A DNA stretch of 64,000 nt from a virus (taxonomy: Duplodnaviria; Caudoviricetes), in IMG/VR virus record IMGVR_UViG_3300037448_000016, positions 13,935 through 77,934 of that record, one strand, 5' to 3'. Of this stretch, positions 2,459 to 63,413 are shown one piece after another (within the stretch, counting starts at the first letter, position 1; each line of letters opens with the position of its first letter). The position numbers were made by a program, and so were the translations under genes. The notes beneath the pieces are model-generated. The model was not told the origin of the DNA. It was given only the letters and a program-made list of their open reading frames with translations, and searched no databases.

Positions 2459-2490
2459 ATTGTCCACCCCTTGACAGCAAGTTGTCAACT
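2459..2490 (-). promoter_or_regulatory. Sigma70-type promoter of the repeated family
   Basis: TTGACA-18 bp-GACAAT on the minus strand. Confidence 0.6.
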
Positions 2491-5402: not shown

Positions 5403-5675
5403 CTACGCGAGGACACCGTCCTGCTCGACCGGCTCCGGGACGTCTTCGCCGGTCATCAGCGCGACGCCAGCCGCGACCAGTTCGTCAAAGGTCTTGCCGC
5501 GCGGCACCTCGCCGTCGTTCGCACCCTGGGTCAAGCCGAAGGTGTGGTTGATCGCGAACCGCATGACAGCGGCCTTGGAGATGCCGAGTCGCTGGTCGAG
5601 CGCGTCGACCAGTTCGGTCTGGGTCTCAGTGCCCACGTAGGGGCGCTGGCTGGGGTAACGGCCACCGATAGCCAT
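5403..5675 (-). CDS. Ribbon-helix-helix-like DNA-binding protein
   Basis: AGGAGG RBS before MAIGG; beta strand YVGTET followed by LVDALDQRLGISKAAVMRFAI. Confidence 0.65.
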   Translation of the reverse strand: MAIGGRYPSQRPYVGTETQTELVDALDQRLGISKAAVMRFAINHTFGLTQGANDGEVPRGKTFDELVAAGVALMTGEDVPEPVEQDGVLA

Positions 5676-5721
5676 GTTGTCCTCCTGTGGACAGAGCGTT
5701 GTCGAGTGCTTGCAGGTCACA

Positions 5722-5757
5722 CCATAGTTGACGTCATGTCAACCTGTCAACTAGACT
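5722..5757. promoter_or_regulatory. Overlapping divergent promoters
   Basis: Minus: TTGACA-18-TATGGT. Plus: TTGACG-18-TAGACT. Confidence 0.7.
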
Positions 5758-8559: not shown

Positions 8560-8782
8560 AGCCGTACTCCCGCAGGAACTTGCGCGCCCTGCCGGACACC
8601 TGACGTTTCGGGCAGCCGCCCTCGTGGATCGCCACGAGGGCGGCTGTTTTTTCTGCCTGGGCCACGGCGAGCCGGGCCTTCGCTTTCAGCACGGACAGTG
8701 CCGCAGCGGACAGCCGTTCCATCGGGCTCTGCTCGATCGGCCGGGTCGCGAAGTGTGGCGGTGGGGGCATCTTGTCGACCAT
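8453..8782 (-). CDS. Hypothetical protein, possible HTH; last gene of the T4SS operon
   Basis: TAGGAG RBS before MVDKMP; C-terminal FTEAEIALLGLSPGSVRLVL is HTH-like. Confidence 0.55.
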   Translation of the reverse strand: MVDKMPPPPHFATRPIEQSPMERLSAAALSVLKAKARLAVAQAEKTAALVAIHEGGCPKRQVSGRARKFLREYGFTEAEIALLGLSPGSVRLVLDPARTPQPENPSERP

Positions 8783-8790
8783 GGGTGCTC

Positions 8791-9744
8791 CTAGTGCTTC
8801 ACTGAGACGTGGACGTGGTTGACGTGGTCGAGCGTGTCGCTGTGCCCACCGGAAGGGTGGGCGTAAGGGCGCCATTGCCCGGTCTCGCTGGTGAAGATCC
8901 GCTTGTTGAAGATGACGTAGTGCCCACCGACCTGGGCCAGGTTCGCGGCCCAGTAGTCCGCTATCTCCTGTCCGAGGTCGTGCTTGTCGGCGGATCGGTA
9001 GTCGCTGCCCAGCATGATGTCCACGGCGTTTCCGGTCGCGTGGTCGGACAGCGTGCCGGTGCCAGCGATCGTGCGGTAGGCGTACCCACCGATCGAGGAG
9101 ATGCACGGCGGCGGGTTCGTGGCGCAGCCCCAGTCTTTCAGCGTCAGGGCTTTGATGTTCTCCGCGCGGGGGCGTAAGCCGTCGCCCCCTTGCGGTCCAC
9201 TCCCCGGATCGGACAGCGCTCCGTCCGCCACGGCGTTGCAGTCCAGACCGAGCCCGTCGACCGCCTCCTGAGCCGCCCCGATGAACTGCCGGTACGATCC
9301 TGACCAGAACGTGACCCAGGGAGAGAAACCATGCGCATCGGTCCATATCTGGAAGGCCACCGAGGCATTGAAGGCTGGATCGTGCCAGTCGCCGTGCGCC
9401 AGAAGGGCCGCGTGTACCGAGTTGATCTGCCACAGGCCGTAATCCGTGGACCCGTTGGTGTTCAGATTCGTGATATTTGCGTTCCATCCGGACTCCGCGT
9501 GCGCAATGGCCACAGCAGTGACCAGGTTGTCTCCGCGAAATCCAGCGGCCAGCGCGGCTTTCGCTACGGCAGCACCATCGCTGGCCGCGTGCCCCGTGAT
9601 GGAGCACGCCTGGCTGGCCGGACCGCCGCCGAGAGCCAGCGATGGAACCGGCGGAGCGCCGCCGCCCGGCAGGCCCGTGAACAGGACCGCCAGGACGGCA
9701 AGGGCCGCCGCACCGGCCAGCGCTAGGCGCTTCAATCCGCCCAC
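8791..9744 (-). CDS. VirB1/TcpG-like cell-wall hydrolase: lytic transglycosylase plus C-terminal M15-like Zn-peptidase domain
   Basis: N-terminal TM/signal; AVAIAHAESG...DYGLWQIN (SLT); SDHATGNAVD...HVNHVHVS. Confidence 0.8.
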   Translation of the reverse strand: MGGLKRLALAGAAALAVLAVLFTGLPGGGAPPVPSLALGGGPASQACSITGHAASDGAAVAKAALAAGFRGDNLVTAVAIAHAESGWNANITNLNTNGSTDYGLWQINSVHAALLAHGDWHDPAFNASVAFQIWTDAHGFSPWVTFWSGSYRQFIGAAQEAVDGLGLDCNAVADGALSDPGSGPQGGDGLRPRAENIKALTLKDWGCATNPPPCISSIGGYAYRTIAGTGTLSDHATGNAVDIMLGSDYRSADKHDLGQEIADYWAANLAQVGGHYVIFNKRIFTSETGQWRPYAHPSGGHSDTLDHVNHVHVSVKH

Positions 9745-10208
9745 GTCAGGCCGGTGCAGAGCCAGTCGCCGGAGACGACGTCCATCGTGACGAGCAGCGC
9801 GCCCCGGTTGGTGGGTACGCTGATCTCCTGCTCGGTCGGGCCGTCTTTCGACACGGTGGCCGAGCCGGTGATCACGGCATCCTTGGGCGCCTCGTTCGTC
9901 GTCAGGTCTTCCAGCACCGGCGGGGAGTACAGGTCGTCGTTCATCACGCCCCGGAACCAGCCGTCAACGGCGCTGATGGCGTCAGGGACGGCCGATCCGT
10001 GGGCGGGCCAGGTGAACGGGTCGGTGCCGGACGGCGATGGCGTCTGCGGGGTGTAGACGGGCGGCCGGGGCCCGGCCGTCGTGGTCGGGCTCGCTTCGGT
10101 CTTCGGGCCGGGCAGGTGGCTGACCGACCGGGCGATGTTGAACCCGGCCAGCACAGCGATCACGGTGAGCAGGGCGGCGATGGTGATTCTCTGGCGGTTG
10201 TTGTTCAT
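9732..10208 (-). CDS. Bitopic conjugation protein, VirB8/TcpC-like (inferred)
   Basis: One N-terminal TM, P/T linker, C-terminal VPTNRGALLVTM...GDW beta-rich domain; operon position. Confidence 0.5.
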   Translation of the reverse strand: MNNNRQRITIAALLTVIAVLAGFNIARSVSHLPGPKTEASPTTTAGPRPPVYTPQTPSPSGTDPFTWPAHGSAVPDAISAVDGWFRGVMNDDLYSPPVLEDLTTNEAPKDAVITGSATVSKDGPTEQEISVPTNRGALLVTMDVVSGDWLCTGLTWAD

Positions 10209-12082
10209 GGCGTGCCTTCCGGGTCGCTGGTGCTGGTGTCGAACATCTGACGGTGCCTGTTCTGCGCGGCTTTACGCGCTTCCTCCCGGTCCTGCTCGGC
10301 GGCCATCCGGGCGTATTCCTCACGGACCACGTCCAGCGGCCGGGTGTAGAACTCGGTCTGCGTGTTGGCCGGTGGCGGTACCGGGTCCGGAACGAACTCC
10401 TCACCGGCCTGGGACGGCCGGTACAGCACCGCGCCGGGCGCCTCCGAGCCCTCGTCGTCGCTGGGCTCGGAGGCGGGTGCGGCCTGAGCCGAGGTGAGGT
10501 AAGACGTGACGTGGGCGTGGGCGTCACGGACCCGCTCCATCCGCTCCTCGTGCTCCTCCTCGCTCTCCCGCGCCCCGGCGGCGGCGCCCTTGCTGACGGC
10601 CCAGGCCATGGCGCCGATGCCGGTGACCTTGCCGACCACGTGCCGGACCAGCCTGCCGTGCCCGCGTATGCGACCGGCGCTCATCAGCGCGAGCGCTTTC
10701 CGGTCGGGCCGCAGCGCCGTCCAGAAAATGAAGACACCCAGGCCCATCAGCAGGAAAGACACCCACGTCGGCCAGCCCGGCTGCATCACGGCCTCGGTGT
10801 AGACGGTATAGAGCCAGGTCCCGATCGCTGCGGTCACCACGATGCCGAGCGCCTGCGACGTGGTGTCGAGCAGCCCCTTGCCCGTCCGGTGCCCCTGCGG
10901 AGTGACCAGCCACGGCGAGGCGAGCAGCCAGACGATCCCGAGGATGGCCAGCAGCAGGATGCACATGATCATCAGGAGGTTGGCGAAGATCCGGAAGAAC
11001 GCCACCGTCAGCGCGAACGCCATCTCGTACAGCGCCGGGCCCGACCCGGCGGCCTGCTCACCGGTCAGCCACCGGTACGCCGCCGGGTCGGAATCTTTCA
11101 CCTCACCAGCGATCTTCTTAAACGCATCCGACTTCTCTTTCAGCAGCGCCTGGCGATCCTTGATCCGTTCCTCGCGATCGGCCTTGTCCTTGGCGAGCGC
11201 CGGGTCGGTGGCCTGGGCTTGGGCCCAGGTGATCCGGGTGGCGGCCAGCAGCGCCGGGCCGTACGTGCGGGCGGTGTCAGACTCGTCGGTGCCGAACGTC
11301 CGCCGCAGCCAGCCGTCGTAGTGGATGGCCTCCATCGCCCGGTCGGTCGCGGCCTGGGCCGGGGAGGCGCCTTCGTACAGCGACGAGGTCACCGCACCGA
11401 CTCCGGCCTGCGTGCTGGTCGCCACCTTCGTCGGGGCCATGATGACGAAACCACCGATCAGCAGGACGATCATGACCCAGGTGATCTGGCTCATCACACC
11501 CGCCGTGTCGCCGCGCTTGGCGCGCCGGAACAGCATGACGGTGCAGAACAGCAGCCCCAGACCCAGGAACGGCAGCAGGATCCGCTTGGAGATCACCGTG
11601 ATGGCCTTGTTCGCCAGCGTGCCGAGCAGTTTCGTCACCCAGGACGGATCGAACGCGAACCGGCTGGTGGCGTCCGCCGCCGCCGTGGAGGCTTGCCCGA
11701 TGCCGACCAGTTTCCTGGCCAGCGACTCGTCACCCCAGGCGTTCAGGTGCTTGCCCCAGTTCGTCACGTTGATCGAGCAGCCCAGGTCGTAGGTGAACGG
11801 CGACATTCCGGAGAAGCCGCTGGTCTCGTACAGGTGCGCGGGGTCGACCGGCTTCTCCCCGACGTCCGGCGGGTCACTGGGCCGGTCGGCGAACAGGCCG
11901 GGCACGCCGACGCTGGGCAACTGCGGTACGGGCGCGGACGGCTGGCAGACCCCCGGCAGGGCCTTCTCCACGGCGAGGGGCTCCGCCGCCTGGGCCCGGG
12001 AGCCGAGCGCGATGCTGAGCAGTACCGCGAGCAGCAGCACGCCGGAAGCGATCCGGCCGATGGTGGACTTCAGGATCCTCAT
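10205..12082 (-). CDS. Polytopic membrane protein, VirB6/TrbL/TcpH-like
   Basis: Signal peptide, several TM segments, acidic/Pro C-tail; ATGA overlap with VirB4. Confidence 0.7.
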   Translation of the reverse strand: MRILKSTIGRIASGVLLLAVLLSIALGSRAQAAEPLAVEKALPGVCQPSAPVPQLPSVGVPGLFADRPSDPPDVGEKPVDPAHLYETSGFSGMSPFTYDLGCSINVTNWGKHLNAWGDESLARKLVGIGQASTAAADATSRFAFDPSWVTKLLGTLANKAITVISKRILLPFLGLGLLFCTVMLFRRAKRGDTAGVMSQITWVMIVLLIGGFVIMAPTKVATSTQAGVGAVTSSLYEGASPAQAATDRAMEAIHYDGWLRRTFGTDESDTARTYGPALLAATRITWAQAQATDPALAKDKADREERIKDRQALLKEKSDAFKKIAGEVKDSDPAAYRWLTGEQAAGSGPALYEMAFALTVAFFRIFANLLMIMCILLLAILGIVWLLASPWLVTPQGHRTGKGLLDTTSQALGIVVTAAIGTWLYTVYTEAVMQPGWPTWVSFLLMGLGVFIFWTALRPDRKALALMSAGRIRGHGRLVRHVVGKVTGIGAMAWAVSKGAAAGARESEEEHEERMERVRDAHAHVTSYLTSAQAAPASEPSDDEGSEAPGAVLYRPSQAGEEFVPDPVPPPANTQTEFYTRPLDVVREEYARMAAEQDREEARKAAQNRHRQMFDTSTSDPEGTP

Positions 12083-14667
12083 ACCAGTTCCCCTTCGCGG
12101 TAGGCCCATCCTTCGGCACCGGCCGGGGTGGGGTTGGTCAGGACGACGTTACGCAGCGCCTGGTGATAGTCGACGTCGACTTTCAGGCCGCCGACTCGCC
12201 CGTCCGCGTCCAGGTGGACGAACTCGCCGGGGCGTCGGGTCGAAAGTTCCATCAGCACACGGGCATACGACTTGTCCTCGATGTGGAGGATCGACAGCAT
12301 CGCCTCGGCTGGTTCCGGGTTGGCCATCCGGCCGACGAACGCACCGGCCAGGAAGTTGCGCAGTTCGCCACCCATCATCTCGTCGGTGACGTTTTTCAGC
12401 CCGAGGTACACCGCGATGTTCCACTTGGAGTGGTCACGGCCCAGACGGTTCAGTTGCCCGCGCCCCGTTCCAGTGTCGAGCAGGTCCTCGGCTTCGTCGA
12501 AAATGCCGATGGCCCGTTCGTGGCGCGGCTTGCTGAACAGCAGCCGGTCCGTGTAGAGCGACGTCAAAAGGAGGATCGGGTCGGCGGCGTGCTCCGTCGC
12601 CGTCCAGTCGACCCGGTCCGAGGAGTCCGGCGCCCGGCGGATCCCGGGGGTCGAGATCACGGTCAGACCGGAGTATGACGCCGGAGAAAAGTCGTCGGTC
12701 GACTTCTCCGGGGGGAACAGCAGGCGGAACAGCGGCATGTCGGCAGCGTCCCGCAGCGCGGCCGAGACCTGGTCGGCGTGCTCGTCGCCCAGGGTCTCCA
12801 GCCCGTTGATCAGGTCCCACATCGTCGCGTACTGCGTCCAGCGGGTCAGGCCAGCCGCCCGGCGCAGCGCCCCGAAGGTGGCGGGGTGCCCGTACAGGTC
12901 GGGGGTCAGGCACCGCCGGGCCACATCGATCGTCAGGGCCCGGCGCTGGGCCAGCGCCTCGTCCTCCGACGTCGCCGAATCCGAGTCGTAGCGGATCAGG
13001 CTCGGCGGGTTCAAGATGCCGCGCTCGCCTTCGAGCAGGTTCAGCGAGCGGCTGATCCCCCGCAGTTCCGGCATCTGGCACAAGGCCATCATCGGGCCGG
13101 ACGGGTCACGGGCGACCACCCGGCCACCGCGCCGGGCGCCGTGGTAGGCGATCGACTCCAGCAGCACCGACTTGCCGCCGCCGAGGGTGGACACGACCGC
13201 CCACATGTTCTGCGAGCGGCCCAGTTCTCCCCGGCCTTCGGTGGCGTACCACGGGTCGTGCATGACCGGGCGCCGGGCGGCCCCAAGCGTGAAGCCGATG
13301 TACGGGCCCCGGCCGTCCCCGATGGCGCTGGACACGTTCGGCATCCCGGCGGCCAGGTAGGACAGCCGGACCTGACGCTGGTAGCCGCTGGTGTCGTAGG
13401 ACTCGCCGGGGACCGTTTCCCGCAGTCGCATCGCCTGGCCGTGCGCGGCGGTGAAATCCATCCGCATCGCGCCGGAGCCGTACAGCCGCCGGAAGGCGTC
13501 GGCCCGCTCCTCACAGGACTGCTCGGCCGACTTGACCACCCGCCCGTCCCGCTCGCGCGTCTCCTCACCGACGATGATCGCGTTGATCGTCCCGACGAAC
13601 CGGGCCGCGTACCGGGGCTGGCCGGTGGTGACCTGGTCGCGGATCTCCTTGGCCAGCGAGATACCCCGCTCGGTGTACTCGGGCGGCAGTTCGTCGAACA
13701 GCCGGTAGGTGTCGTTGATGTTGATGGCCTTGTTCAGGTCGAGGGTGGCCTGCTTCGCCAGTTCCTCGCCGGAGCGGATCCGGCCCTGCAACGACCACTC
13801 CACGGCGATGGGGGAGCCGTCCGAGTCGACCAGACGCTCGGCGAACGCCTGCCACGGCTCCAGCCCGTTCTCCGGGTAGTGCAGGTCGGCCAGCCGCGCG
13901 GCGGTCAGCACCTGCACGTGCCGGGTCTGCTGCACGCCGTCACGCCATGCCGTGACCTCGACCGTGCGGTCGAAGCGTGACTCGGCCCACCGCACGTCGT
14001 TGGACAACTCGGGAAGGTCACGCACGTCCCAGCCGGTCTCGGCTGCACGCATGGGGGCGGGCATTCCGGGGGCCAGCGAGCGCTCGTGGATCCAGCCCTG
14101 CTCGCGCTCGGTCATGCGTACGGCACGCCACCCGGTCACGGCGTCATGCACACGCTTCTCCTCCGCCAGAAGCGTGCCGACCTCCGCCGACACGGGCGTG
14201 CCCGTGCGTGCGTGCGTGAGGATCTCGCCCCGCACGTCACGGCCGGGCTCCACCGTGCCGACCGTGAACCAGCGGAAGACGATCTTGTCTTCCATGCCGG
14301 ACGCCCCGATCCGCCGCTGCATCCGCACCAGGTAGTCGTCCCAGGTCTCCCCGTCCACATCCGGTACGGGAGCCGGGGTGCGCCGGTCCAGGTCGGCGGC
14401 CCAGGCCGCAACGGGGTGCGGGCGGTTCGTGACGCGCTCCCTGAAGTCCCGGCCCGCCAGTTCGGCCCAGACGTCGGCCGACGCCTCAATGAGCCCGCTA
14501 CGGGCCTCCAGAGGCATGAAGTCCCAGCGGGACGCCCCGATCCGGTACCCGGCCCAGACCCGGCCGTCGCTGGCCACCACCAGATTGGAGACGATCTGCC
14601 GGACACCCGGGGCGATCTGAGCGTGCATCGGAGCCGAAAGGTCGGCTTTCGCCTTACGCCAGATCAT
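12079..14667 (-). CDS. virB4: VirB4/TcpF-like T4SS ATPase
   Basis: About 862 aa; Walker A STLGGGKS, VVARDPSG, Walker B IGIFDEAEDLL, RDHSKWNIAVYL, GEFVHLDADGRVG. Confidence 0.88.
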   Translation of the reverse strand: MIWRKAKADLSAPMHAQIAPGVRQIVSNLVVASDGRVWAGYRIGASRWDFMPLEARSGLIEASADVWAELAGRDFRERVTNRPHPVAAWAADLDRRTPAPVPDVDGETWDDYLVRMQRRIGASGMEDKIVFRWFTVGTVEPGRDVRGEILTHARTGTPVSAEVGTLLAEEKRVHDAVTGWRAVRMTEREQGWIHERSLAPGMPAPMRAAETGWDVRDLPELSNDVRWAESRFDRTVEVTAWRDGVQQTRHVQVLTAARLADLHYPENGLEPWQAFAERLVDSDGSPIAVEWSLQGRIRSGEELAKQATLDLNKAININDTYRLFDELPPEYTERGISLAKEIRDQVTTGQPRYAARFVGTINAIIVGEETRERDGRVVKSAEQSCEERADAFRRLYGSGAMRMDFTAAHGQAMRLRETVPGESYDTSGYQRQVRLSYLAAGMPNVSSAIGDGRGPYIGFTLGAARRPVMHDPWYATEGRGELGRSQNMWAVVSTLGGGKSVLLESIAYHGARRGGRVVARDPSGPMMALCQMPELRGISRSLNLLEGERGILNPPSLIRYDSDSATSEDEALAQRRALTIDVARRCLTPDLYGHPATFGALRRAAGLTRWTQYATMWDLINGLETLGDEHADQVSAALRDAADMPLFRLLFPPEKSTDDFSPASYSGLTVISTPGIRRAPDSSDRVDWTATEHAADPILLLTSLYTDRLLFSKPRHERAIGIFDEAEDLLDTGTGRGQLNRLGRDHSKWNIAVYLGLKNVTDEMMGGELRNFLAGAFVGRMANPEPAEAMLSILHIEDKSYARVLMELSTRRPGEFVHLDADGRVGGLKVDVDYHQALRNVVLTNPTPAGAEGWAYREGELV

Positions 14668-15631
14668 CGATCTCCCCCTGCCGGACAGCGGCCTCTTCGG
14701 CAACGGACACCATGGCTTCGTACGCCTGACCGAACTCCGAGCGCTGCACGCAGAACACGCTCCCGGTCTCGGTGTTGAACACGACGACCGTGCCGTCTTC
14801 GAGCGGCACGCCGTTGGCCGTGACCGCTGCACGCACGAGCACCTCCGTGCCCGTGCCGTCCGCGTGCAGCACGCGCTTCATCTGCACGCGCGTGACCTGC
14901 ACGCTGGCCCCCCGGTCACGCAACCACACCAGCACGTGCTGGCCGAGGCGCTCGTCGCGTGCAGTGGAGTCGAACAGCATCGCCTCCACCACGGGCCTGC
15001 GTTCCCTGTACTTGATCACCATGATGTCCTCCGGGTCGTAGTCGTTCAGGCTGGCCATGAAGTCGAGCAGGACCTGGTCGGCCTGCTCCGTGTCGAGAAC
15101 GAGGGGAAGGACCTCCACGGCGAGGGGGGTCCGCAGCGGGGCGACACCGCGCCACTGCTCCGGCAGCGTGCGCAGCCAGAAGGTCACCGGCCGGTTCCCG
15201 TCGATGAACGGGCGGGCCTGGCGCACCAGCAGGAACGCGACCAGCACGGCCAGCGGCCCGGCGGCCCAGAACGGCGACGGGAAGATCCACTTCGCCGGAT
15301 TCGGGACGATCACGAGGCCGAACAGCACCGCCACCCCAGCGATGACCACCTGGCCCCGCCTGCGGGCCGCTGCGGGCCTGGAGAAGGTCAGGCGGGCCAA
15401 GTGGTCCAGGGCCATCCCGTTGGCCGCCCAGCGGCCGAACAGGGCCGCGCTGAGGCCGACGATGCCGCCTACCGGGACCACCAGCCACAGCAGGGCGAAC
15501 AGCACCGGCACCGACAGCAGGCCGATCGCCCACTCGGTGTACGTCGCGTCGAACGGCCAGCGCCACGCACCGGTCGGCCCCAGCCACGGCGAGCGCAGAT
15601 TGCGCGAGGCGTCCTCGCTGCGCTGGATCAC
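14654..15631 (-). CDS. TcpE/VirB3-like conjugation membrane protein with C-terminal extension
   Basis: N-terminal WLGPTGAWRWPF, four TM segments, PFIDGNRP; directly upstream of virB4. Confidence 0.6.
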   Translation of the reverse strand: MIQRSEDASRNLRSPWLGPTGAWRWPFDATYTEWAIGLLSVPVLFALLWLVVPVGGIVGLSAALFGRWAANGMALDHLARLTFSRPAAARRRGQVVIAGVAVLFGLVIVPNPAKWIFPSPFWAAGPLAVLVAFLLVRQARPFIDGNRPVTFWLRTLPEQWRGVAPLRTPLAVEVLPLVLDTEQADQVLLDFMASLNDYDPEDIMVIKYRERRPVVEAMLFDSTARDERLGQHVLVWLRDRGASVQVTRVQMKRVLHADGTGTEVLVRAAVTANGVPLEDGTVVVFNTETGSVFCVQRSEFGQAYEAMVSVAEEAAVRQGEIDDLA

Positions 15632-15723
15632 CGCCACAACCACCGATCGAACGCCTCCACCGCGACGAGCCCGGCCAGCACGGCACCGGCCAGCACCCCC
15701 GCCACGAACAGCACGGGCCTCAC
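15628..15723 (-). CDS. 31-aa single-TM peptide
   Basis: GTGA overlaps at both ends; MRPVLFVAGVLAGAVLAGLVAVEAFDRWLWR. Confidence 0.55.
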   Translation of the reverse strand: MRPVLFVAGVLAGAVLAGLVAVEAFDRWLWR

Positions 15724-16118
15724 TCCGGCTGCCCGTCGCGCGACGGCTCCGGGCCGAACCCGGCCGACGTGAGCACCTGCTGGAAGGCGTCGAGCGCTGA
15801 ACCGCTCGTGAGCGGCCGGTTGAGCGCTGGCGCCCCGATCCGGGCGAATCGGATCTCCAGGTTCATGAGCCCGTGGCTGACGAGGTGGTCGACCTCCACG
15901 TTGGACAGCGTCCACACCGTGGCGATCGGCTCGGCGAAGAAATGCGCCTTCAGCGCGTCCGCGATCCCGTCCGGCAGGACGCTGGCCGGGACACGCCTGG
16001 GGAGGGACGGCCGGTCTCGTTCCGGGCCGCCCTCGCTGAACGTCAGGGTGACGTCGTCGATGTAGTTGCCTTCCACCTCCCGGCGGAAGTGGCTGAGGTG
16101 GTACTTCAGGTCGCTCAC
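15720..16118 (-). CDS. Hypothetical soluble protein in the T4SS operon
   Basis: 132-aa ORF with GTGA coupling. Confidence 0.6.
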   Translation of the reverse strand: MSDLKYHLSHFRREVEGNYIDDVTLTFSEGGPERDRPSLPRRVPASVLPDGIADALKAHFFAEPIATVWTLSNVEVDHLVSHGLMNLEIRFARIGAPALNRPLTSGSALDAFQQVLTSAGFGPEPSRDGQPE

Positions 16119-16414
16119 TTGCTCAGGAAGGGGACGGACCAGCCGAGGAACGCGGCGGCGAAGGCCAGGCCGGTACCGGCGATCCCGATCGCGCCGGGGA
16201 TGAGCGCGAGCAGGGTGGCGCCGACGATGTCGAAGATCTTGCGGGTGTTGCCCTTGCGGGCGTGCCCGGCGAGCGCTGCGAGCGTGATCCAGATCAGAAC
16301 GAGGCTGATCCCGAGCAGCAGCAGCGCGCGGGCCTTGTTCAGAGTGCTGTTCGGCGTGAAATCGCCGGTGGCGGCCAACTCGGTGGCGGCCTGGAGAGCC
16401 TGCACGTGGGTCAT
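16115..16414 (-). CDS. Small two-TM protein, VirB2/TcpD pilin-like (inferred)
   Basis: 99 aa; two hydrophobic helices around a basic loop HARKGNTRK; first gene of the operon; GAGGGG RBS. Confidence 0.55.
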   Translation of the reverse strand: MTHVQALQAATELAATGDFTPNSTLNKARALLLLGISLVLIWITLAALAGHARKGNTRKIFDIVGATLLALIPGAIGIAGTGLAFAAAFLGWSVPFLSK

Positions 16415-16440
16415 GGCTTAACCCCTCTCGCTAGTGGGCT

Positions 16441-16475
16441 ATCAACATAACACGTGTAGTCAGGCCGTTGTCAAC
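16441..16475 (-). promoter_or_regulatory. Promoter/operator of the T4SS operon (repeated family)
   Basis: GTTGACAACGGCCTGAC...TATGTT. Confidence 0.7.
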
Positions 16476-16513
16476 CCGCCGTACGCGGTGCGTAACCGTC
16501 ACAGGGCGCGGAA

Positions 16514-16720
16514 CCAGGGATTTTTTGGCAGGGACAGGGAAATTCAAAACACAGGCTCTATGGGCACATAGGAGCAAATAGTTTCTGGAGTCCCTAGAGA
16601 CCCTCTGAGCACGAAAAAAATCCCTGGCAGGGAGAAAACTTCCCTAGCCGGACGGCGCCAGCGGCGCACCCGCTACGCCGCGGAGGCAGTCCGCTACCCA
16701 CTGCGACGGCAGGGAGAAAT
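16514..16720. repeat. AT-rich AGGGA/TCCCT A-tract boxes, site 1
   Basis: CCAGGGATTTTTT (16514) and AAAAAATCCCTGG (16615) form an inverted pair; AGGGAGAAAACTTCCCT at 16629. Confidence 0.75.
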
Positions 16721-16721
16721 G

Positions 16722-16759
16722 CGAAAGGGGCCAGGATCGAAAAATCCCTGGCCCCTTCG
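16722..16759 (-). terminator. Hairpin after the holin gene
   Basis: GAAAGGGGCCAGG...CCTGGCCCCTTCG stem. Confidence 0.65.
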
Positions 16760-16769
16760 TCACGCTCGG

Positions 16770-17135
16770 TTACCGGGTTGCGGTGTGCCCGAGCACCCGA
16801 ACGCCGTAGTGGTCAGCCACGTTGGCCACGGTGCCGACCTGGATGGCGCCGACGAACGCGATCAGGATGGCCGCCCGCTCCGCAGGGGAGATCACGCCGT
16901 CCGTCCAGGCGTCCACTACGGCCAGCACGACCGCCGTGAAGATGGCGATGGCCTCCTTGGCGTTGGGCTGGGTGACGGTGTTGGCCTTGAAGTACACCGC
17001 CAGCGCGCCCAGGAACGTCACCACGGCGCCGATGACCACCGGCCGGGTAAAGTCCCCGGCGATGAGCGCGGCGGCCCCAGTGGAGCCCAGGACGGCGATG
17101 AGCGCGTACTGAATTGCTTTCGCTGCGTAATCCAT
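16770..17135 (-). CDS. Holin (multi-TM)
   Basis: 121 aa, four hydrophobic segments, directly after the endolysin. Confidence 0.7.
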   Translation of the reverse strand: MDYAAKAIQYALIAVLGSTGAAALIAGDFTRPVVIGAVVTFLGALAVYFKANTVTQPNAKEAIAIFTAVVLAVVDAWTDGVISPAERAAILIAFVGAIQVGTVANVADHYGVRVLGHTATR

Positions 17136-31882: not shown

Positions 31883-32182
31883 TTAGTGGGTTGGGATGAA
31901 ACTGGGCTGGACGTCGACGATGTACTCGTTGACGGCGTCGACGATCCCCACGCCTTCGGCGCGGAACGCCCACTGGCCGGGCTCGTTCACCAGCACCGAA
32001 CCCTCGTAGGCGCCGGTGCTCCGCCGGGTGTACGTGGCCGCAGGGTAGGTGAGGGTCGACACCACCCCGGACGGCGAACTGGCCGTCAGGGTGACGATGT
32101 TGGGGTCCTGCGGAACGCCGTTGAGACGGAAGATCGTTTCGATCAGCACGCGCTGGCCGACGAAGGTGGGGAAGTAGGCCAT
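31883..32182 (-). CDS. Small Ig-like virion-associated protein (99 aa)
   Basis: Starts MAYFPTF; beta-strand pattern with STGAYE and GQWAFRAEG. Confidence 0.6.
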   Translation of the reverse strand: MAYFPTFVGQRVLIETIFRLNGVPQDPNIVTLTASSPSGVVSTLTYPAATYTRRSTGAYEGSVLVNEPGQWAFRAEGVGIVDAVNEYIVDVQPSFIPTH

Positions 32183-33255
32183 CAGTCTCTCCTGTGCCGG
32201 ACGGTGACGGTGGCGCGCTGAAGCAGTTGCATCGCAACGAGACCGGGGCGGCCGAAGACGCGCCCGACGTTGACAGCGACGAGCGCACCGGCCGGGGCGA
32301 TCGCACCGGACATCTTCCGGATTCCACTCCGGATCATGTTGGCGCCGGGCGTAGCGGCACCGGCGAAATTCTTCCGGGCCTGCTTCAGCAGGGTGGCGGC
32401 CGGGGTGATGGTACCGGCGAACGCCTTCGGGACGACCTTTTTCAGCGCGCCAGCCGGGGTGATGGCACCGGCGAATGCCCGGGTGACGACCCGGAGCGCT
32501 ACGAGCGCCCCGGTCGGCGTGGTGGCGCCGGTGAACTTCTTGCCCGCCACCTTCACCAGCGTGGCGCTCGGCGTGATCCCGCCCGCCGCCGCGAGCGTCG
32601 CCTGCGACGGCGTCTCGGTGTCGTGCAGGTCCACGTTGTCGATGAAGAAGTTCTTCGATCCGGTGCTGCCGGAGTTGGTCGTGAAACCCCAATACCCGGC
32701 CGTGTTCACGGTGTGGGTGTCGGTGGTGTTGATCTGCCAGGAGGACGTCGGCTCCGAGCCGCTAGCCAGCCACGTGCGGGCCTTTAGCGTCTTCGTGCCG
32801 GTGCCGCCGAACACCGCGATCCGGGTCCGGACCGTAGTGCCAGCGGTGAAACCATGGGTGTAGGTGACCAGGTCGTGGCCGGAGTAGGTCGAGGTCGTCT
32901 CGGTGTATGACAAGGTCATGTCGCCGGACGCGAGCGTGAACGCATACCCGGACGCGGTGTCGACGGCCGTGGGCGTCCGGGCCCAGACGGCGGGGAACTG
33001 GTCGTTCAGCACCGGAACGACCCAGTCGAACACGATCTCGCTGTTCAGCAGGGCCGACGTCAGCAGCCGGACCGACGTCCGGTTGCCGGTCACCGTGCCA
33101 GTGGCGATGCGGCCCTGGTTGCCCTGGATCGTCGCACCGCCACCGGTGCCCTGGTTCAGGGCGATGGTCCAGTTGGTCGAGTTCCAGGCCGCGCCGTTGG
33201 AGCCGGTGAACGTGTCCGGCACGGCACCGTTGGGCATCAGGTCAGTACCGGTCAC
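32182..33255 (-). CDS. Putative virion structural protein (lectin-like N-terminus, repetitive C-terminus)
   Basis: GGAGG RBS; DTFT...W motif; repeated AGxITPxGAL units. Confidence 0.6.
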   Translation of the reverse strand: MTGTDLMPNGAVPDTFTGSNGAAWNSTNWTIALNQGTGGGATIQGNQGRIATGTVTGNRTSVRLLTSALLNSEIVFDWVVPVLNDQFPAVWARTPTAVDTASGYAFTLASGDMTLSYTETTSTYSGHDLVTYTHGFTAGTTVRTRIAVFGGTGTKTLKARTWLASGSEPTSSWQINTTDTHTVNTAGYWGFTTNSGSTGSKNFFIDNVDLHDTETPSQATLAAAGGITPSATLVKVAGKKFTGATTPTGALVALRVVTRAFAGAITPAGALKKVVPKAFAGTITPAATLLKQARKNFAGAATPGANMIRSGIRKMSGAIAPAGALVAVNVGRVFGRPGLVAMQLLQRATVTVRHRRD

Positions 33256-33302
33256 GATTCACCTCCGATCGGATCGACAACGGATTGACAACGAGTTGTT
33301 GC

Positions 33303-43796: not shown

Positions 43797-43828
43797 ATTG
43801 TAAGCGTCCAGTCAGTGACTTGTCAACT
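43797..43828 (-). promoter_or_regulatory. Near-consensus promoter (repeated family)
   Basis: TTGACA-AGTCACTGAC...-18 bp-TACAAT, 5 nt before ATG. Confidence 0.85.
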
Positions 43829-43987
43829 ACTGGACAAATAGAGAGAGGCCGATCGCATGGCCTCTTCAGGCGTTTGCGTTCGGCCCCTCTCGGCGGCGGC
43901 CAACCCTGGGATGAGGTTTGACGACGACGACCCAGTTTCGCAGCACCGCTGTGGTCAACTATGGGCGATGGTCAGCCCGTTGTCAAC

Positions 43988-47245: not shown

Positions 47246-47536
47246 ATGAGCGAACGGGTCAGCACGGGACGTGTCCGGCACCTGCTCAGCGAGGAGGTGG
47301 AACGGGCCGTCACGGAAGCGATCGAGTACGGCAAGGTACCGAGCAACGCCGTGGCTGCCACGATCGCATCGTGGTACCAGACGCCAGGGGGCCATGGGCT
47401 CACGTTCGCCCTGCTCCAACAGGGCAGCGAGGTGCTCCGCGAAGACCTGAGCGACGCCATCACGTCCGAGAGCGCCGAGAGCGCCGAGCACGACCGCCAC
47501 ATGTGGACTCTGAGCATGTGGATGGAAAGCCGCTGA
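47246..47536 (+). CDS. Hypothetical protein
   Basis: GAGG RBS; starts MSERVST. Confidence 0.65.
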   Translation: MSERVSTGRVRHLLSEEVERAVTEAIEYGKVPSNAVAATIASWYQTPGGHGLTFALLQQGSEVLREDLSDAITSESAESAEHDRHMWTLSMWMESR

Positions 47537-47596
47537 CAGCGACTTGACAACGCACTGACCAGCACGGTACGGTTCAACCACCGACGACAACGAGGA

Positions 47597-48218: not shown

Positions 48219-48353
48219 ATGGCGATGCAACGGTATGACGTGCTAGACGACAATGGAGACGTCTTGGAGTCGTTCGATTCCTGGGCCCTGGCGAACATCA
48301 AGGCGCGAGAGCACAGATTCACGGTCCGCGACAACATGCCGGATGAGGACTGA
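48219..48353 (+). CDS. Small hypothetical protein (44 aa)
   Basis: GAAAGG RBS; MAMQRYDVLDD... Confidence 0.5.
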   Translation: MAMQRYDVLDDNGDVLESFDSWALANIKAREHRFTVRDNMPDED

Positions 48354-48424
48354 CCAGCAGTTGACAACGGACTGACCAGCACGGTACGGTTCAACCACCG
48401 ACGACGACGAAACGAGGCCACACA

Positions 48425-49337: not shown

Positions 49338-49471
49338 TGCCACGTCCAGCCGGATCATTGGCCACGTGCCCGACCTGCAACGCCATCGTGCTGATTACGC
49401 CCAAGGGCGTGGTCAAGCATTTCCCGGGAGCGACCGACTGCCCCACCGAGGGCACTACGCTTAACCAGTAG
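49337..49471 (+). CDS. Small Zn-ribbon-like protein (44 aa)
   Basis: TGATG coupling; CPTC...H...C. Confidence 0.55.
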   Translation: MPRPAGSLATCPTCNAIVLITPKGVVKHFPGATDCPTEGTTLNQ

Positions 49472-49507
49472 TTGACAACTCCCTGACAACTCCGATAGCC
49501 TCCCATC

Positions 49508-50155
49508 ATGACGACGACGAAAGGTGCTCCCGTGGCAACGCTGGCCGACATCCTCCCCTCCGAGACTGCGATGGTCCGGAACATCCTGAAGGTCTACCGT
49601 TCCGCCACCGACGCGCAACGAGGCCAGGGAATGGCCTGGTACGACGAGGCGCACAGCCTGGCGGTTGCGCTGGACCCGGAGAACCCGATGCGAGCAGCCG
49701 GTGTCATCTCGGCGCTCTCCCCTCGGATCCAGTGGTCGTACAACCAGAAGTTGGCCATCCGGCTGTACGCCGACGGCGTGCTGACCGGCGGCTGCCTGCC
49801 TGCGAACTACACGAAGGCGAACAAGATCTTTAACGGGGCCGACGTGATGGCCACGCTGAAAGCACCCAAGACGCAAGCGTTCGCCGCGACCATTGCCAAT
49901 CCGGCAGGCGATCACGCTCCCGTGATCGACCGTCACGCTTTCAGCGTTGCCGTCGGATACGCCAGTACCGACGACGACACGTCGATCCTGGGACGCAAGG
50001 GGGCGTACGACCTGTTCGCCGGGGCGTACCGGAAGGCAGCGAAGCGGGCCGGGATCAGCCCGAGCCAGATGCAGGCCGTGACCTGGGTCGTGTGGCGCCA
50101 GACCGCGATCCGATACTCCGCTTCCATCCTCCGCGAGGAAACGGTTGCTGCCTGA
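49508..50155 (+). CDS. Phage protein with HhH-GPD/glycosylase-like features
   Basis: GMAWY, AAGVISALSP, KTQAF, PVIDRHA and QMQAVTW. Confidence 0.65.
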   Translation: MTTTKGAPVATLADILPSETAMVRNILKVYRSATDAQRGQGMAWYDEAHSLAVALDPENPMRAAGVISALSPRIQWSYNQKLAIRLYADGVLTGGCLPANYTKANKIFNGADVMATLKAPKTQAFAATIANPAGDHAPVIDRHAFSVAVGYASTDDDTSILGRKGAYDLFAGAYRKAAKRAGISPSQMQAVTWVVWRQTAIRYSASILREETVAA

Positions 50156-50770: not shown

Positions 50771-50841
50771 ACGGGTGATCGGATCGGCCGATCACCATCC
50801 AGCAGTTGACAACTCGTTGACCACTATGGAAAGATGGAGCC

Positions 50842-51327
50842 ATGACGACGACACAGGCAATCACCATCGTGAGCAAGCAGTGCGGCAAGTTCCGGGGGCA
50901 CCCTGGATCGTGCGACGACACGATCGAGTTCACCAGCCCGCACGCCGAAGATCAGTGCGTGGTCGGCATCCCGGTACTGAAGCACAATGACCGGGTGCTG
51001 ATCGACGGCATGGCCAATGGCTACGCGGTCCGCGCCGTGGTCACCACGCTCGGCGGGTACGGCGCCAGCAACCGCTCGTACGAGGGGCCGGACGGAATGG
51101 CCCGGTACCTGAAGGCGCTGGAGCGCAACGAGAAGCACGGCGGTGCGTGGATCAGCGTCGAGGCCACCGTGATCTCGGCCTACCGCGAAGCAGAGAGGCC
51201 GCGCACGATCGTCAAGATCGGCGGCCTGGTCCGGATCGTCTCGGACGTGCCGGGTGAAGGCGGCATCTACCGGCTGGAGTTTTACAGCCAGTGGGACCAC
51301 CACAACGTGCTCCTGGTCCGCGCCTGA
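50842..51327 (+). CDS. Hypothetical protein
   Basis: 161 aa, downstream of the promoter at 50806. Confidence 0.65.
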   Translation: MTTTQAITIVSKQCGKFRGHPGSCDDTIEFTSPHAEDQCVVGIPVLKHNDRVLIDGMANGYAVRAVVTTLGGYGASNRSYEGPDGMARYLKALERNEKHGGAWISVEATVISAYREAERPRTIVKIGGLVRIVSDVPGEGGIYRLEFYSQWDHHNVLLVRA

Positions 51328-51423
51328 ACCATCTCGCTCCCGCTGGCCATCGACCCCGAGTCGGTGGCCAGTGGTACTTAACCACAACTTGACAACTCGT
51401 TGACAAAACGGAAGGATGAGGAC

Positions 51424-53430: not shown

Positions 53431-53502
53431 CCCGCCAGGCTATGCGCCATCAACACTGACAGGGTATTGACAACTCGCTGACCACAGGAGTACGATCGGG
53501 TC

Positions 53503-56665: not shown

Positions 56666-56943
56666 GGGTCCGCCGCGATGGACTCGCGGTTGATGTACCA
56701 GTTGTGGGCGCCGTGCCCCGGCAGGGTGCCGGTCAGGATCTCCCAGCCGTTGCGCCGGGTCAGGTGGATGTCGGTCAGCCGGTCCATGAGGCTCAGGGAG
56801 CCGCTGAGGGTCCGCCCCGTCACGGTGTCCGGCGAGCCGATCAGCCCGTCCCGCCCGTTGTTGTTCGCACTCATCCGCAGCAGATTTTTCGCCTGCACGC
56901 GCGTGCAGGGCACGGTCTCGGTCACGGTCTCGTTCGTCGTCAT
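56653..56943 (-). CDS. Hypothetical protein
   Basis: Leaderless after TTGACA-18-TAGGAT. Confidence 0.65.
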   Translation of the reverse strand: MTTNETVTETVPCTRVQAKNLLRMSANNNGRDGLIGSPDTVTGRTLSGSLSLMDRLTDIHLTRRNGWEILTGTLPGHGAHNWYINRESIAADPWSA

Positions 56944-57000
56944 GCCCCGATCCTACCGGAGTTGTCAGTCTCTTGTCAACCCGTCATCCACTCCCCCGCG

Positions 57001-57928: not shown

Positions 57929-58251
57929 ATGCTCCTTCTGAAGTCGAGGTCTCCGGCCATCGCCGCGAAGCGGGCGAGGTTCATTCCGTCTGGGTGGCCA
58001 GCGACCACGGCATCGATCGCTGCCCGCATCAGCCGGTCTTCCGAGGAGTGTGCGGCCTCGTCGTCACCGGCGATGGCCAGGCCGCGAATGGTCATGTACA
58101 ACTCGGCCGCCTCGGGCAGCGTCATCGGGTCGCGGCGCCCGTCGTTCATCAGCATCTCGACCGTCTGCGGCGCCGCCGCCATCGCCGCCTGCATGGCCTC
58201 CACGGCGAGGGGGTGATCGAGCCGTGGCTTCTCGTGCTTGTTCGTCGTCAT
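57925..58251 (-). CDS. Hypothetical protein
   Basis: Leaderless after TTGACA-18-TAGGAT; HSSEDRLM...HPD. Confidence 0.7.
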   Translation of the reverse strand: MTTNKHEKPRLDHPLAVEAMQAAMAAAPQTVEMLMNDGRRDPMTLPEAAELYMTIRGLAIAGDDEAAHSSEDRLMRAAIDAVVAGHPDGMNLARFAAMAGDLDFRRSM

Positions 58252-58312
58252 GCCCGAATCCTACAGGAGTGGTCAACAAGTTGTCAACGACTGGACAAGG
58301 CGGGACGGATCC

Positions 58313-58737: not shown

Positions 58738-59597
58738 GCCCCTTCGATCTGCGCGATCAGCGCCTTGGCTGTCCGCTGGACCCGCTGCCCGGCGGCCATG
58801 ACCTTGTCGACGCCGCCCCAGTGCGCGACGTAGGAGAAAGACGACGTGCCCATTTCCATCCCGAGCACCCGTCCGACCACGTACGCCACCGATTCGGCCT
58901 CCACTTCGGCCTCGCCCCGGTGCTGCTGGTACGAGTAGTCCTCCGCGAGGTGGCCGAGCATCACGTGTGCGATCTCGTGCAGCAGGGTGGCCACGGTCTG
59001 CGGCTCGTCCCCGGCGAACCGCGAGGAGATCACGATGTTTTTCAGCACGCCGTCGGTGTGCCCGTCTGCCGTGCCCGAGTCGCCGTAGGCCCACGGGTAA
59101 CCGGTCCCGGCCGCGATCCCGGCCAGCGTGACCAGCAGACCTTCCGGCACGGACGTCGCCACGGTGCCGTGGTCGACCGTGGGCAGCGGCTCGCCGTCGG
59201 TCTGCGAGACGTCGAACACGGTGGCCATCTTCCAGCCGACCAGTTTCGTGGCCTTCGGGTCACCGTTGGCCCGCTTAACGTCGTCCGGCACGATGACCGG
59301 CGCGAGCACCTTGAAGCCGGTCGATCCTTTGATCACGTTCCGGCCCGCCTTCTTCCAGACGCCGAAACCGGCGAACCGGGTGACCTCCATGTTGCGGATC
59401 GCGGCCTGCCGCAGCAGGAACAGGACGTTGCCGAACGAGTAGGAGTGGAACTGGGCGCTGAAGTCCAGCACGCGGACCCAGTCCTCGGAGGAACGGATTT
59501 CGGCCACCTGCGCCGCAATGGCGTTGTGGGCCTCGTCGAGCCGGGCGGCCTTCTCTTCGGCGCTCAGCGGGGTGTATGCCTTCGTTTTCGTCGTCAT
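58734..59597 (-). CDS. ArdC-like ssDNA-binding / antirestriction protein with HExxH metalloprotease-like domain
   Basis: YSFGNVLFL, FAGFGVWKKAGRNVIKG, VFDVSQTDG, LLHEIAH and EVEAESVAY. Confidence 0.8.
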   Translation of the reverse strand: MTTKTKAYTPLSAEEKAARLDEAHNAIAAQVAEIRSSEDWVRVLDFSAQFHSYSFGNVLFLLRQAAIRNMEVTRFAGFGVWKKAGRNVIKGSTGFKVLAPVIVPDDVKRANGDPKATKLVGWKMATVFDVSQTDGEPLPTVDHGTVATSVPEGLLVTLAGIAAGTGYPWAYGDSGTADGHTDGVLKNIVISSRFAGDEPQTVATLLHEIAHVMLGHLAEDYSYQQHRGEAEVEAESVAYVVGRVLGMEMGTSSFSYVAHWGGVDKVMAAGQRVQRTAKALIAQIEGA

Positions 59598-59968
59598 ACC
59601 TGGAGGTTACAGGAGTGGTCAACAAGTTGTCAACCCCTGGACAAGAAAATGGGCACCCGCTCGGAACAGGCCCGGTCGTCTCTGGCAGGAGACGTACCAA
59701 CCGATGGCCGCTCACGAGCGGGCGCCCCTTCAGTGCGCTGGCCGGATCAGCGGGAGAGATTAGTCCCCTAGCCGACCATCCTTCCGTGCTCCCAGGAGAA
59801 TGAGTGGCCCTGGGCGGTGAGGTTGACGCGAAAACTATGCGGTACCACAGTCCCTCTTGCAGGCCCGCCGAATCAAGGCGATCCACCGGTTGGCCAGTGG
59901 GTGACCTGAGGCCAGCCACTCCCGGATCAGCCCGGAGTGAGTCTCGCAGCAGCCGATCGCCGCCCCGG

Positions 59969-61154: not shown

Positions 61155-61325
61155 GCCATGACCCCCGAAGAGTACGACGCCTTCCGCGCGGGCCCTGGTG
61201 GAGCAGACCGACCCGGCTTCTGGGTCCGCTGACCACGACTTGACAACGCACTGACCACAGCGTAGAGTTTCACCAGGCCCGAACGAGTCGGGCCTTCCAC
61301 ACCGAATCGCCTCCAGGAGGCCGAG

Positions 61326-62722: not shown

Positions 62723-62792
62723 TTCATCAGTGAGTTGACAAGACACTGACAACCCATATAGAGTCGAGGCAACGACGACGACGGAGGACGGC

Positions 62793-63413
62793 ATGAACAA
62801 GGCACAGATCCTGAAGGCCATCAAGACCGGCCAGCACGTGGCGTTCGGTAAGCGCGACTCCTACGCCGCACCGCGCAAGGTCATCGTGCTGGGTGAGGAG
62901 AAGATGCCAATCAACGTCTACGGCCGCCTCGCCCCCGAGCACGACTGGCCGCTGCGCTGGAAGGTGCAGCAGGTCGAGGACGTGAGGCACAACGGCTCGC
63001 TGACCTACGAGGCCGGTAGCACCACGTTCGCCAAGTCTCAGGAGTTGCTCGGTGATTGGGACGTGGTCGAGGCTGAGCGCACCGCCGAGCGTGAGCGCGG
63101 TCAGATCGAGGCCAAGCGCAAGGCCGACGCGCACCAGGCCCAGAAGGACGCCGGTGCGAAGATCAAGGAACTGTTCGCTGCGGTCGGCAGCACCACCTAC
63201 ATCGACGACTGGGGCGGCGAGATCCGCATCCGCCCCACGGACCTGTACGACTTCCTGGAGCGTCTCGGCAAGACCACGGCTCGCACCCTGGCCGCCGACG
63301 CCCGCGAGCACTTCGCCCCGGATCTCACCAACGACGCCGCCGCAGGGTTCGACGAAGGGTTCAGCAGCGGCATCGAAGCAGCCATCGGCTACATCGAGGA
63401 GAGCGCCAGATGA
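62793..63413 (+). CDS. Hypothetical protein
   Basis: GGAGG RBS, 206 aa. Confidence 0.7.
   Translation: MNKAQILKAIKTGQHVAFGKRDSYAAPRKVIVLGEEKMPINVYGRLAPEHDWPLRWKVQQVEDVRHNGSLTYEAGSTTFAKSQELLGDWDVVEAERTAERERGQIEAKRKADAHQAQKDAGAKIKELFAAVGSTTYIDDWGGEIRIRPTDLYDFLERLGKTTARTLAADAREHFAPDLTNDAAAGFDEGFSSGIEAAIGYIEESAR

Follow-up and report, generated by a model that had tools for sequence, protein, structure and literature searches.

The DNA analysed here belongs to an uncultured, tailed soil actinophage that is known from metagenomes alone. The window, by which we mean the whole stretch of 64,000 nucleotides, covers bases 13935-77934 of a single 77,934-bp contig, and coordinates below refer to it unless they are given as genome coordinates. 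The contig ends (genome 1-127 and 77808-77934) share an identical 127-bp overlap, so the genome either was assembled as a circle or is terminally redundant. GC content of the DNA is 66%. Hallmark genes of tailed phages are present, namely an HK97-type capsid, an SPP1-type portal and a terminase large subunit, along with DUF5047 tail genes, an M15 endolysin and a primase-polymerase, and the segment from 16.7 to 43.8 kb forms one leftward packaging, structural and lysis block. A megablast search of 20 kb against deposited phages found no close match; relatives were found solely in metagenomes. Rfam profiles run over the whole window gave nothing at gathering score.

The window also contains an operon that resembles a type IV secretion system (T4SS; Table 1). 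Its first gene matched no Pfam family and an Atlas search gave no usable lead for it; the earlier label "pilin-like" is a guess. Homologues of this gene (33-62% identity) head the operon in eight relatives. The ATPase matches the TcpF model at E 3.6e-12, a remote similarity far below the curated cut-off, and the VirB4-like PDB entry 4ag5 at a marginal E of 0.006. For the TrbL/VirB6-like protein, the nearest Atlas clusters are actinobacterial, with TrbL in 11-25% of their members (score 0.96, TM 0.71). Neither a coupling protein nor a relaxase is encoded in the operon, which also has no oriT, and no relaxase was found among the proteins scanned, which were a subset of the ORFs. A 540-aa fusion of an HNH nuclease with an FtsK/SpoIIIE ATPase lies before the window (L020 2328-4161, genome coordinates), behind a promoter at genome 2328 of the family described below; among candidate DNA translocases it alone could serve the T4SS-like module as a partner.

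Table 1. Coordinates in the window of the T4SS-like operon, its promoter region, members of the repeated promoter family and the candidate regulator.
Feature	Coordinates	Strand	Remarks
T4SS-like operon	8791..16414	-	small membrane proteins, ATPase, TrbL/VirB6-like protein, 158-aa single-helix membrane protein, SLT hydrolase
First gene	16115..16414	-	heads the operon; 99-aa protein with two predicted membrane helices
VirB4/TcpF-like ATPase	12079..14832	-	AAA_10 2e-14, 53.8 bits against a cut-off of 27.5
TrbL/VirB6-like protein	10205..12109	-	at least 5 hydrophobic segments; no Pfam hit
SLT hydrolase	8791..9744	-	SLT_3 at 9e-20
Unit 1, TTGACAA	16468..16474	-	first six bases are the -35 hexamer TTGACA, 6/6 consensus
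Unit 2, CTGACTA	16457..16463	-	inside the spacer, starts exactly 11 bp after unit 1; 6/7 of YTGWCMA
-10 hexamer TATGTT	16444..16449	-	19-bp spacer
Predicted 5' leader	16415..16443	-	about 22-24 nt; Shine-Dalgarno GAGAGGGG at 16422-16429
Strong hairpin after holin-like gene	16727..16755	-	-34.7 kcal/mol, z -3.2; conserved in L001
AT-rich island	16476..16720		AGGGA/TCCCT palindromes; between terminator and promoter; long hairpin, z -3.4
Candidate regulator (P0036)	5403..5675	-	90-aa ribbon-helix-helix-like protein; RHH_1 E 0.047, weak
Two-unit array without -10	33274..33291		operator-only type; within the structural operon, 36 nt ahead of gene 32182-33255(-)
Three-unit promoter	43797..43837	-	TTGACA-18-TACAAT (43826), leaderless ATG; 11/12 consensus bases; heads the packaging/structural operon
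Family promoter	2459..2488	-	TTGACAAcTTGCTGTCAA, palindromic type; just after the primase-polymerase gene
Face-to-face overlapping promoters	5721..5757		plus TTGACG-18-TAGACT, minus TTGACA-18-TATGGT; units 8 bp apart
Three-unit promoter	47533..47573	+	CTGACAG, TTGACAA, CTGACCA; -10 TACGGT; then CGACGACAACGA, an ACGACGA-box variant
Three-unit family promoter, typical	48350..48390	+	motif match
Family promoter	49461..49510	+	motif match; leaderless ATGACGACGA start
Family promoter	50795..50845	+	motif match; leaderless start
Family promoter	51378..51420	+	motif match; before helicase gene
Family promoter	53456..53500	+	motif match
Family promoter	56940..56979	-	motif match; leaderless
Family promoter	58250..58298	-	motif match; three units, leaderless
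Family promoter	59596..59644	-	motif match; three units, before anti-restriction-like gene
Family promoter	61229..61270	+	motif match; three units
Family promoter	62735..62795	+	motif match

The predicted promoter of this operon lies on the minus strand at 16474-16444 and consists of TTGACA, a 19-bp spacer and TATGTT, the letters from 16474 being TTGACAACGGCCTGAC TACACGTGT TATGTT; at 18-bp spacing the hexamer would read TTATGT. It is intergenic and co-oriented with the gene at 16115-16414(-), 60 nt before the ATG at 16414, and it matches TTGACAAC-N3-CTGAC perfectly, at 13 of 13 specified bases. The leader, GATAGCCCACTAGCGAGAGGGG, includes a Shine-Dalgarno sequence; the ATG stands 29 nt past the -10, with GAGAGGGG 7 nt before it, and an 18-nt stretch of the leader, CCCACTAGCGAGAGGGGT, is identical in L001, one of the metagenomic relatives compared below. 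A relaxed minus-strand scan of 8700-16800 gave no other good sigma-70-like candidate: the sole other match upstream of the first gene is a weak TTGAAT-16-AAAAAT at 16547, and two weak matches lie inside the operon (12702 and 10869). A strict promoter scan, which allows spacers of 16-18 bp, does not call the site because its spacer is 19 bp. The original prediction had placed a phage-type promoter before the operon's first gene, and this is borne out by a match that is perfect, intergenic and the only good sigma-70-type candidate there.

Upstream, the hairpin at 16727-16755 is likely the terminator of the structural and lysis operon, although it has no clean U-tract, and with it the T4SS-like operon has its own terminator-to-promoter gap. 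The AT-rich island in that gap is partly conserved in L001. A second AT-rich island with AGGGA...TCCCT palindromes and A/T runs lies at 55601-55828, just downstream of a motif promoter at 55573(+) that has no clear -10; local alignment of the two islands found short common boxes only.

The motif itself is abundant. Within the window TTGACAAC-N3-CTGAC has 26 matches at two mismatches or fewer, eight of them perfect, against 0.97 expected and 4 in the largest shuffle, which agrees with the earlier count of about 20 promoters bearing the same signature. Over the whole 77,934-bp genome there are 22 sites with at most one mismatch. We estimate from base composition that a perfect match is expected by chance about 7e-4 times per window, and a generalised 18-mer gave 17 matches against 0.01 expected. 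The repeat unit is a 7-bp pseudo-palindrome, YTGWCMA, in arrays spaced exactly 11 bp. Counting either strand it occurs 124 times, against 46 in dinucleotide shuffles, and 31 pairs of units are exactly 11 bp apart from centre to centre and 7 pairs 22 bp apart; 30 shuffles gave about 0, and all other spacings between 5 and 30 bp had one pair at most.

Members of the family follow a common design: an optional unit at -11, TTGACAA, four bases, YTGAC(C/A)A, about six bases, and TAnnnT, with a +1 region that is often (C)A(T)GACGACGA and frequently a leaderless ATG. One unit of the array doubles as the -35 hexamer, and about half of the members have a third unit 11 bp upstream of it. TTGACA is present in all arrays, perfect or nearly so, and in most of them TAnnnT follows at 17-19 bp, family members being mostly near-ideal hexamers 17-18 bp apart. 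Nearly all of the top-scoring sites are intergenic and point in the direction of the next gene, which starts 11-86 nt further on. Further arrays lack a -10, at 46025-46042 and at 5690-5705 in the leader of the RHH-like gene, in addition to the one in Table 1; the arrays at 33274-33291 and 46025-46042 may be operator-only or roadblock sites. Units occur in both orientations, as TGGTCAG in the third unit at genome 10031 and as TTGTCAA in relatives, and this fits a symmetric reader for each unit. Since TTGACAA and TTGTCAA are mutual reverse complements, only the central base tells a "direct" from an "inverted" version. Phasing by exactly one turn, indifference to orientation and the existence of promoter-less copies together point to a protein-binding array and not to polymerase contacts. 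The family is thus most likely a set of host-type promoters overlaid by a predicted operator for a phage-encoded regulator.

Several other repeats were observed. (i) A sequence (C)A(T)GACGACGA lies about 7 nt after the -10 at about 15 promoters (for example at window 46542, 47544, 48361, 49472, 50806, 56979, 58287, 59633 and 62735); in many it supplies a leaderless ATG, with proteins starting MTT, and in others it is non-coding. There are 41 copies of GACGACGA in the genome, and an ACGACGA-like sequence also follows promoters of the distant relative G001. (ii) Plain k-mer counts are dominated by coding bias. The 10-mer CTCCACGGCG or its complement has 33 copies genome-wide, inside genes and with unrelated flanks (for example at window 749, 2841, 11966, 13798 and 15113), and another over-represented 10-mer, CGCCCTGGCC, has 41 copies in G001. 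(iii) The face-to-face promoters at 5721-5757, both strong, lie between the RHH-like gene and a rightward operon, and the arrangement, with its 8-bp in place of 11-bp spacing, looks like a switch region.

Motif scoring placed the T4SS-operon site inside the family. With a leave-one-out weight matrix applied to all genome positions it scored 27.6 bits (background mean -48, sd 12) and ranked 22nd, in the lower half of the family. Where other copies have a unit at -11 it has CGTACGG, 3/7, and it lacks both the ACGACGA box at +1 and a leaderless start. It is a partial member of the family, like the copies at 2488, 43986 and 46212.

About two dozen transcription units begin with two- or three-unit arrays. 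Most copies of the family are in regions of small genes (44-64 kb, and genome 0.5-12 kb), and the genes behind them include a helicase, an anti-restriction-like gene, the HNH-FtsK fusion and many unknowns. The original prediction took the signature as a sign of co-regulation with early genes, and as stated this is not supported: the three-unit copy at 43826(-) heads the packaging and structural operon, is the best consensus promoter of the region 27-46.7 kb and, going upstream from the terminase, portal, capsid, tail and lysis genes, is the first consensus promoter to be reached. As the same motif heads the structural operon, sharing it gives no timing, and by its distribution the signature marks the phage's transcription units in general, not early genes specifically. 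Nor does shared timing with early genes follow for the T4SS-like operon, whose copy is partial, has a 19-bp spacer and has its own conserved leader. These three features suggest a strength or timing of its own for this operon, which would be part of the phage's general regulon and not of a specifically early set.

The promoter was compared with the orthologous position in 16 related metagenomic loci, one of them cellular (L019). Half of them (8/16) have a two-unit array there (Table 2). These loci retain the units and the -10 but differ in the four bases between the units and in the 25 nt upstream, and like this phage they lack the third upstream unit. In L004 the two units together form a perfect palindrome of 18 bp that extends from the -35 into the spacer, the 18-mer is identical to that of another L004 promoter, and the orthologue of the 2459-2488 promoter (L004 19812) is again a perfect palindrome. 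Arrays elsewhere in the available DNA of the relatives number five in 32 kb for L004, three for L013 and two for L014. Two leader boxes, GNTANC and then YTAGCR 3-7 nt apart, recur in L004, L013, L014 and L015, with a copy in L001 like that of this phage; they are not at the phage's other promoters and may be an operon-specific control site.

Table 2. Two-unit arrays at the promoter of the T4SS-like operon in this phage (G000) and eight related loci.
Locus	Unit 1	Gap	Unit 2	-10	Spacer (bp)
G000	TTGACAA	cggc	CTGACTA	TATGTT	19
L001	TTGACAA	gatc	CTGACCA	TACGTT	19
L021	TTGACAA	gtcc	TCAACAA	TAGTCT	19
L022	TTGACAA	ctcc	TCGACAA	TATGGT	17
L004	TTGACAA	cgcg	TTGTCAA	TATATC	19
L013	TTGACAA	gcgg	TTGTCAA	TACCTT	18
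L014	TTGTCAA	gcgg	TTGTCAA	TACTCT	18
L015	TTGTCAT	gagg	TTGTCAA	TATGGT	18
L024	TTGTCAG	gtgg	TTGTCAA	TATGAT	18

The other eight loci (L003, L012, L010, L011, L016, L023, G001 and the cellular L019) have no array at this position and no exact 18-mer match anywhere in the DNA fetched, so the array is not essential to the module. L003, L012, L010, L011, L016, L023 and G001 have other sigma-70-like promoters at the position and no arrays in the DNA fetched. TAGTAAA(G/C)TC is common to two L003 promoters, that of the T4SS operon and the one that follows the primase gene; a repeat search in L003 returned noise only. G001, whose VirB4-like protein is 39% identical, has no copies of the motif, and its T4SS-operon promoter has TAnnnT-MACCAC, as do five early-type promoters; this is a post hoc pattern (6 against about 2.8 expected), and the link it would make between these promoters is only suggestive. 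A fair reading of the alignments is that in each phage the T4SS-operon promoter resembles that phage's other promoters. The VirB4 tree divides the array-bearing phages into two fully supported clades with array-less ones between them, and because the backbone is unresolved, one origin with losses is indistinguishable from two gains.

For the VirB4-like ATPase of the module, 35 homologues were found, which are 40-99% identical to it and lie on contigs of up to 83 kb. The common gene order runs from tape measure, tail genes, endolysin and a small membrane gene across a gap to small membrane genes and the ATPase, and then to a membrane protein of about 620 aa, small genes, the SLT hydrolase, a short opposite-strand block, the RHH-like gene and the primase-polymerase; this order was seen in every locus with enough flank, with the primase relocated in one contig. 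The synteny is fixed in at least 12 phage contigs, where the module sits between lysis and replication genes, and an intergenic gap with terminator and promoter is present in all loci examined. Even the distant G001, a 69.5-kb phage rated 96% complete, shares with this phage its capsid (60% identity), terminase (64%), portal (51%) and ATPase (39%), tail genes also being common to both, as well as the VirB6-like protein (31%), the SLT hydrolase (34%), the RHH-like protein (37%) and the HNH-FtsK fusion (35%). When loci are compared, the identity of the ATPase rises and falls with that of the tail proteins (r 0.64-0.73) and, more closely, with that of the two other module proteins (r 0.93).

No flanking repeats of 10 bp or more were found around the block, no integrase was found among the proteins scanned, which took in part of the small ORFs, and the GC fraction of the block, 0.69, is close to the 0.67 of the structural genes. 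Among 185,579 species genomes the sole cellular hit was an uncultured Actinomycetota MAG (L019), and among 50,697 deposited phage genomes there were no ATPase homologues except one 23%-identical fragment. Conserved synteny, co-divergence, absent flanking repeats, similar GC and the lone cellular hit make a passenger integrative conjugative element (ICE) untenable, and a lineage-wide, "domesticated" phage module is well supported by these comparisons.

The MAG carries a compact, stand-alone chromosomal module (L019 6254-13818), in which a VirB4-like gene (38% identical) and a gene for a 629-aa VirB6-like protein are accompanied by two small genes, one gene of 190 aa and another for a CHAP hydrolase. 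TetR/M20-peptidase genes border it on one side and InhA-like/hemerythrin genes on the other, and the neighbourhood is free of phage genes.

An integrative conjugative element was considered for the block in this phage and rejected: no integrase or relaxase was found among the scanned proteins, no flanking repeats were seen, the synteny is fixed, and VirB4 tracks the tail proteins. Of the statement that the module is domesticated and co-regulated with early genes, then, the first half stands, on a phage-type promoter and a module of the whole lineage, while early co-regulation does not follow, the motif being present on the structural operon too.

We propose, with a probability of roughly 0.6, that the site before the T4SS-like operon is a real, autonomous promoter of host type acting under a phage operator array, likely that of a repressor or timer. 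Its TTGACA, 19-bp spacer and TATGTT would be read as a host primary-sigma promoter, with a leader of about 23 nt and a strong ribosome-binding site. The starts of TTGACAA and CTGACTA, 11 bp apart, put the two units on one face of the helix, where a phage-encoded DNA-binding protein could place one dimer on each unit and bind cooperatively along the array. Covering the -35 and the spacer, the bound protein would shut these promoters together, so that the regulator would be a global repressor or timer and, less likely, an activator.

The first alternative is that the repeats are promoter-strength elements for the host RNA polymerase, for example an extended -35 or spacer preference, with no regulator and a constitutive operon. 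That every array has a perfect or near-perfect TTGACA, mostly with TAnnnT at 17-19 bp, would follow directly, and our search for a regulator gave no identification. We nevertheless think this unlikely, because polymerase preference does not call for exact 11-bp phasing of up to three units with one of them upstream of the -35, for units in either orientation or for arrays without any -10, and because eight related loci have good sigma-70-like promoters here without the second unit.

Phased repeats also recall a host regulator, such as an OmpR/PhoB-type response regulator on direct repeats, which would tie the phage to a host signal. Regulators of that class typically bind repeats with 11-bp phasing, and an overlap with the -35, as the units show, is a feature of some activator-dependent promoters; the pseudo-palindromic form of the units, their occurrence in both orientations, and a motif that varies among closely related phages and is absent from several leave this explanation with a small chance of being right.

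Comparably improbable, in our view, is an activator site, at which a phage factor over the -35 and spacer would remodel a poor 19-bp promoter in a MerR-like or sigma-appropriation-like way and give a timed switch-on. Most family members are near-ideal at 17-18 bp and should fire unaided, and the dyad centre is 3-4 bp after the -35, unlike that of MerR operators, which is mid-spacer. The idea draws on the 19-bp spacer conserved in this phage, L001, L004 and L021, on the perfect palindrome of L004, and on the precedent of an actinophage MerR-family regulator that binds repeats, D29 Gp36, although that protein represses (PMC12266134).

Finally, it is very hard to credit that the match is a coincidence and that the operon depends mainly on the late transcript, of which it would be the last part: the operon does lie directly downstream of the lysis genes on the same strand, behind a hairpin without a clean U-tract, but so few perfect matches are expected by chance (about 7e-4 per window, our estimate), the hexamers and units are conserved in relatives while their flanks diverge, and the gap with terminator and promoter is kept in all loci examined.

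For the phage-encoded repressor or timer that we favour, the best candidate is the RHH-like protein at 5403-5675, which is unproven and is offered as a lead, not a result. It is conserved beside the module in seven relatives, and its gene adjoins the face-to-face overlapping promoters packed with units. The structure model has a coil-helix-helix core (pLDDT 72), for which Foldseek found nothing significant. Homologues are also present in array-less phages, so that presence or absence of the protein fails to separate phages with and without the array. No gp71-like repressor was detected among the proteins scanned.

Operator arrays embedded in promoters are a familiar phage device, and one more such site is no revolution. 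What makes it valuable is its bearing on the module: a tailed phage would hold a conjugation-type secretion module as a transcription unit of its own under phage regulation, and a lineage known from metagenomes only would have retained that unit and adjusted it together with the other phage promoters. The question moves from whether this is a contaminating ICE to what role a T4SS has in a phage, and the analysis supplies defined DNA sites and a short list of candidate regulators for it. Perhaps the T4SS-like machine, with its VirB4-like ATPase, VirB6-like channel protein and wall hydrolase and with the HNH-FtsK translocase encoded elsewhere, is a core function across a lineage of soil actinophages (about 70-83 kb), is controlled through the phage's promoter/operator network and is used for something not known from any tailed phage, for example virion-free movement of DNA from cell to cell or between hyphal compartments, or an envelope-spanning conduit during infection; this is a tentative idea that we would bet against.

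The closest known relatives of the module are the MPF-FATA type conjugative T4SSs of Gram-positives, such as those of pCW3 (Tcp), ICEBs1 and pIP501 (PMC3548315). Shared with these are a VirB4/TcpF-like ATPase, a candidate TrbL/VirB6-like polytopic protein, a wall hydrolase and small membrane proteins, in the usual order. The module differs in lying inside a tailed-phage genome, in the interval between lysis and replication, with no relaxase or VirD4 in the operon; the only FtsK-like gene is the HNH fusion elsewhere, and similarity to the curated families is remote. A limited literature search turned up no published tailed phage that has a VirB4/VirB6-type module.

For the repeats, one parallel is with the stoperators of Cluster A mycobacteriophages, short sites bound by an L5 gp71-type repressor in dozens of copies per genome (PMC9283540, PMC6550527). 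Both cases have many short sites in an actinophage genome, one class of stoperator overlaps the -35 of an early promoter, and many transcription units answer to one phage protein, as is proposed here. Stoperators, however, are single, asymmetric 13-bp sites that lie mostly off promoters and block elongation, whereas in this phage two or three pseudo-palindromic 7-mers follow one another with 11-bp phasing, almost always inside promoters, and neither a gp71-like repressor nor an integrase was found among its scanned proteins. Cluster O mycobacteriophages have a 17-bp palindromic repeat, TGTTCGG-N3-CCGAACA, in more than 30 copies, together with SigA-like leaderless promoters (PMC4351075). There too a short symmetric repeat occurs at gene boundaries and host-type, often leaderless promoters are strongly predicted; that repeat is separate from the promoters, whereas here the repeat unit itself is the -35. 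Ribbon-helix-helix repressors (Arc, Mnt, CopG and the omega protein of inc18 plasmids) read phased sub-sites as dimers. The present system would differ from these in serving about 25 promoters, far more than they do, and in a candidate protein that is weakly RHH-like; it resembles them in short, near-symmetric sub-sites, tolerance of either orientation, overlap with the promoter hexamers and, as predicted here, cooperative binding along one face of the DNA.
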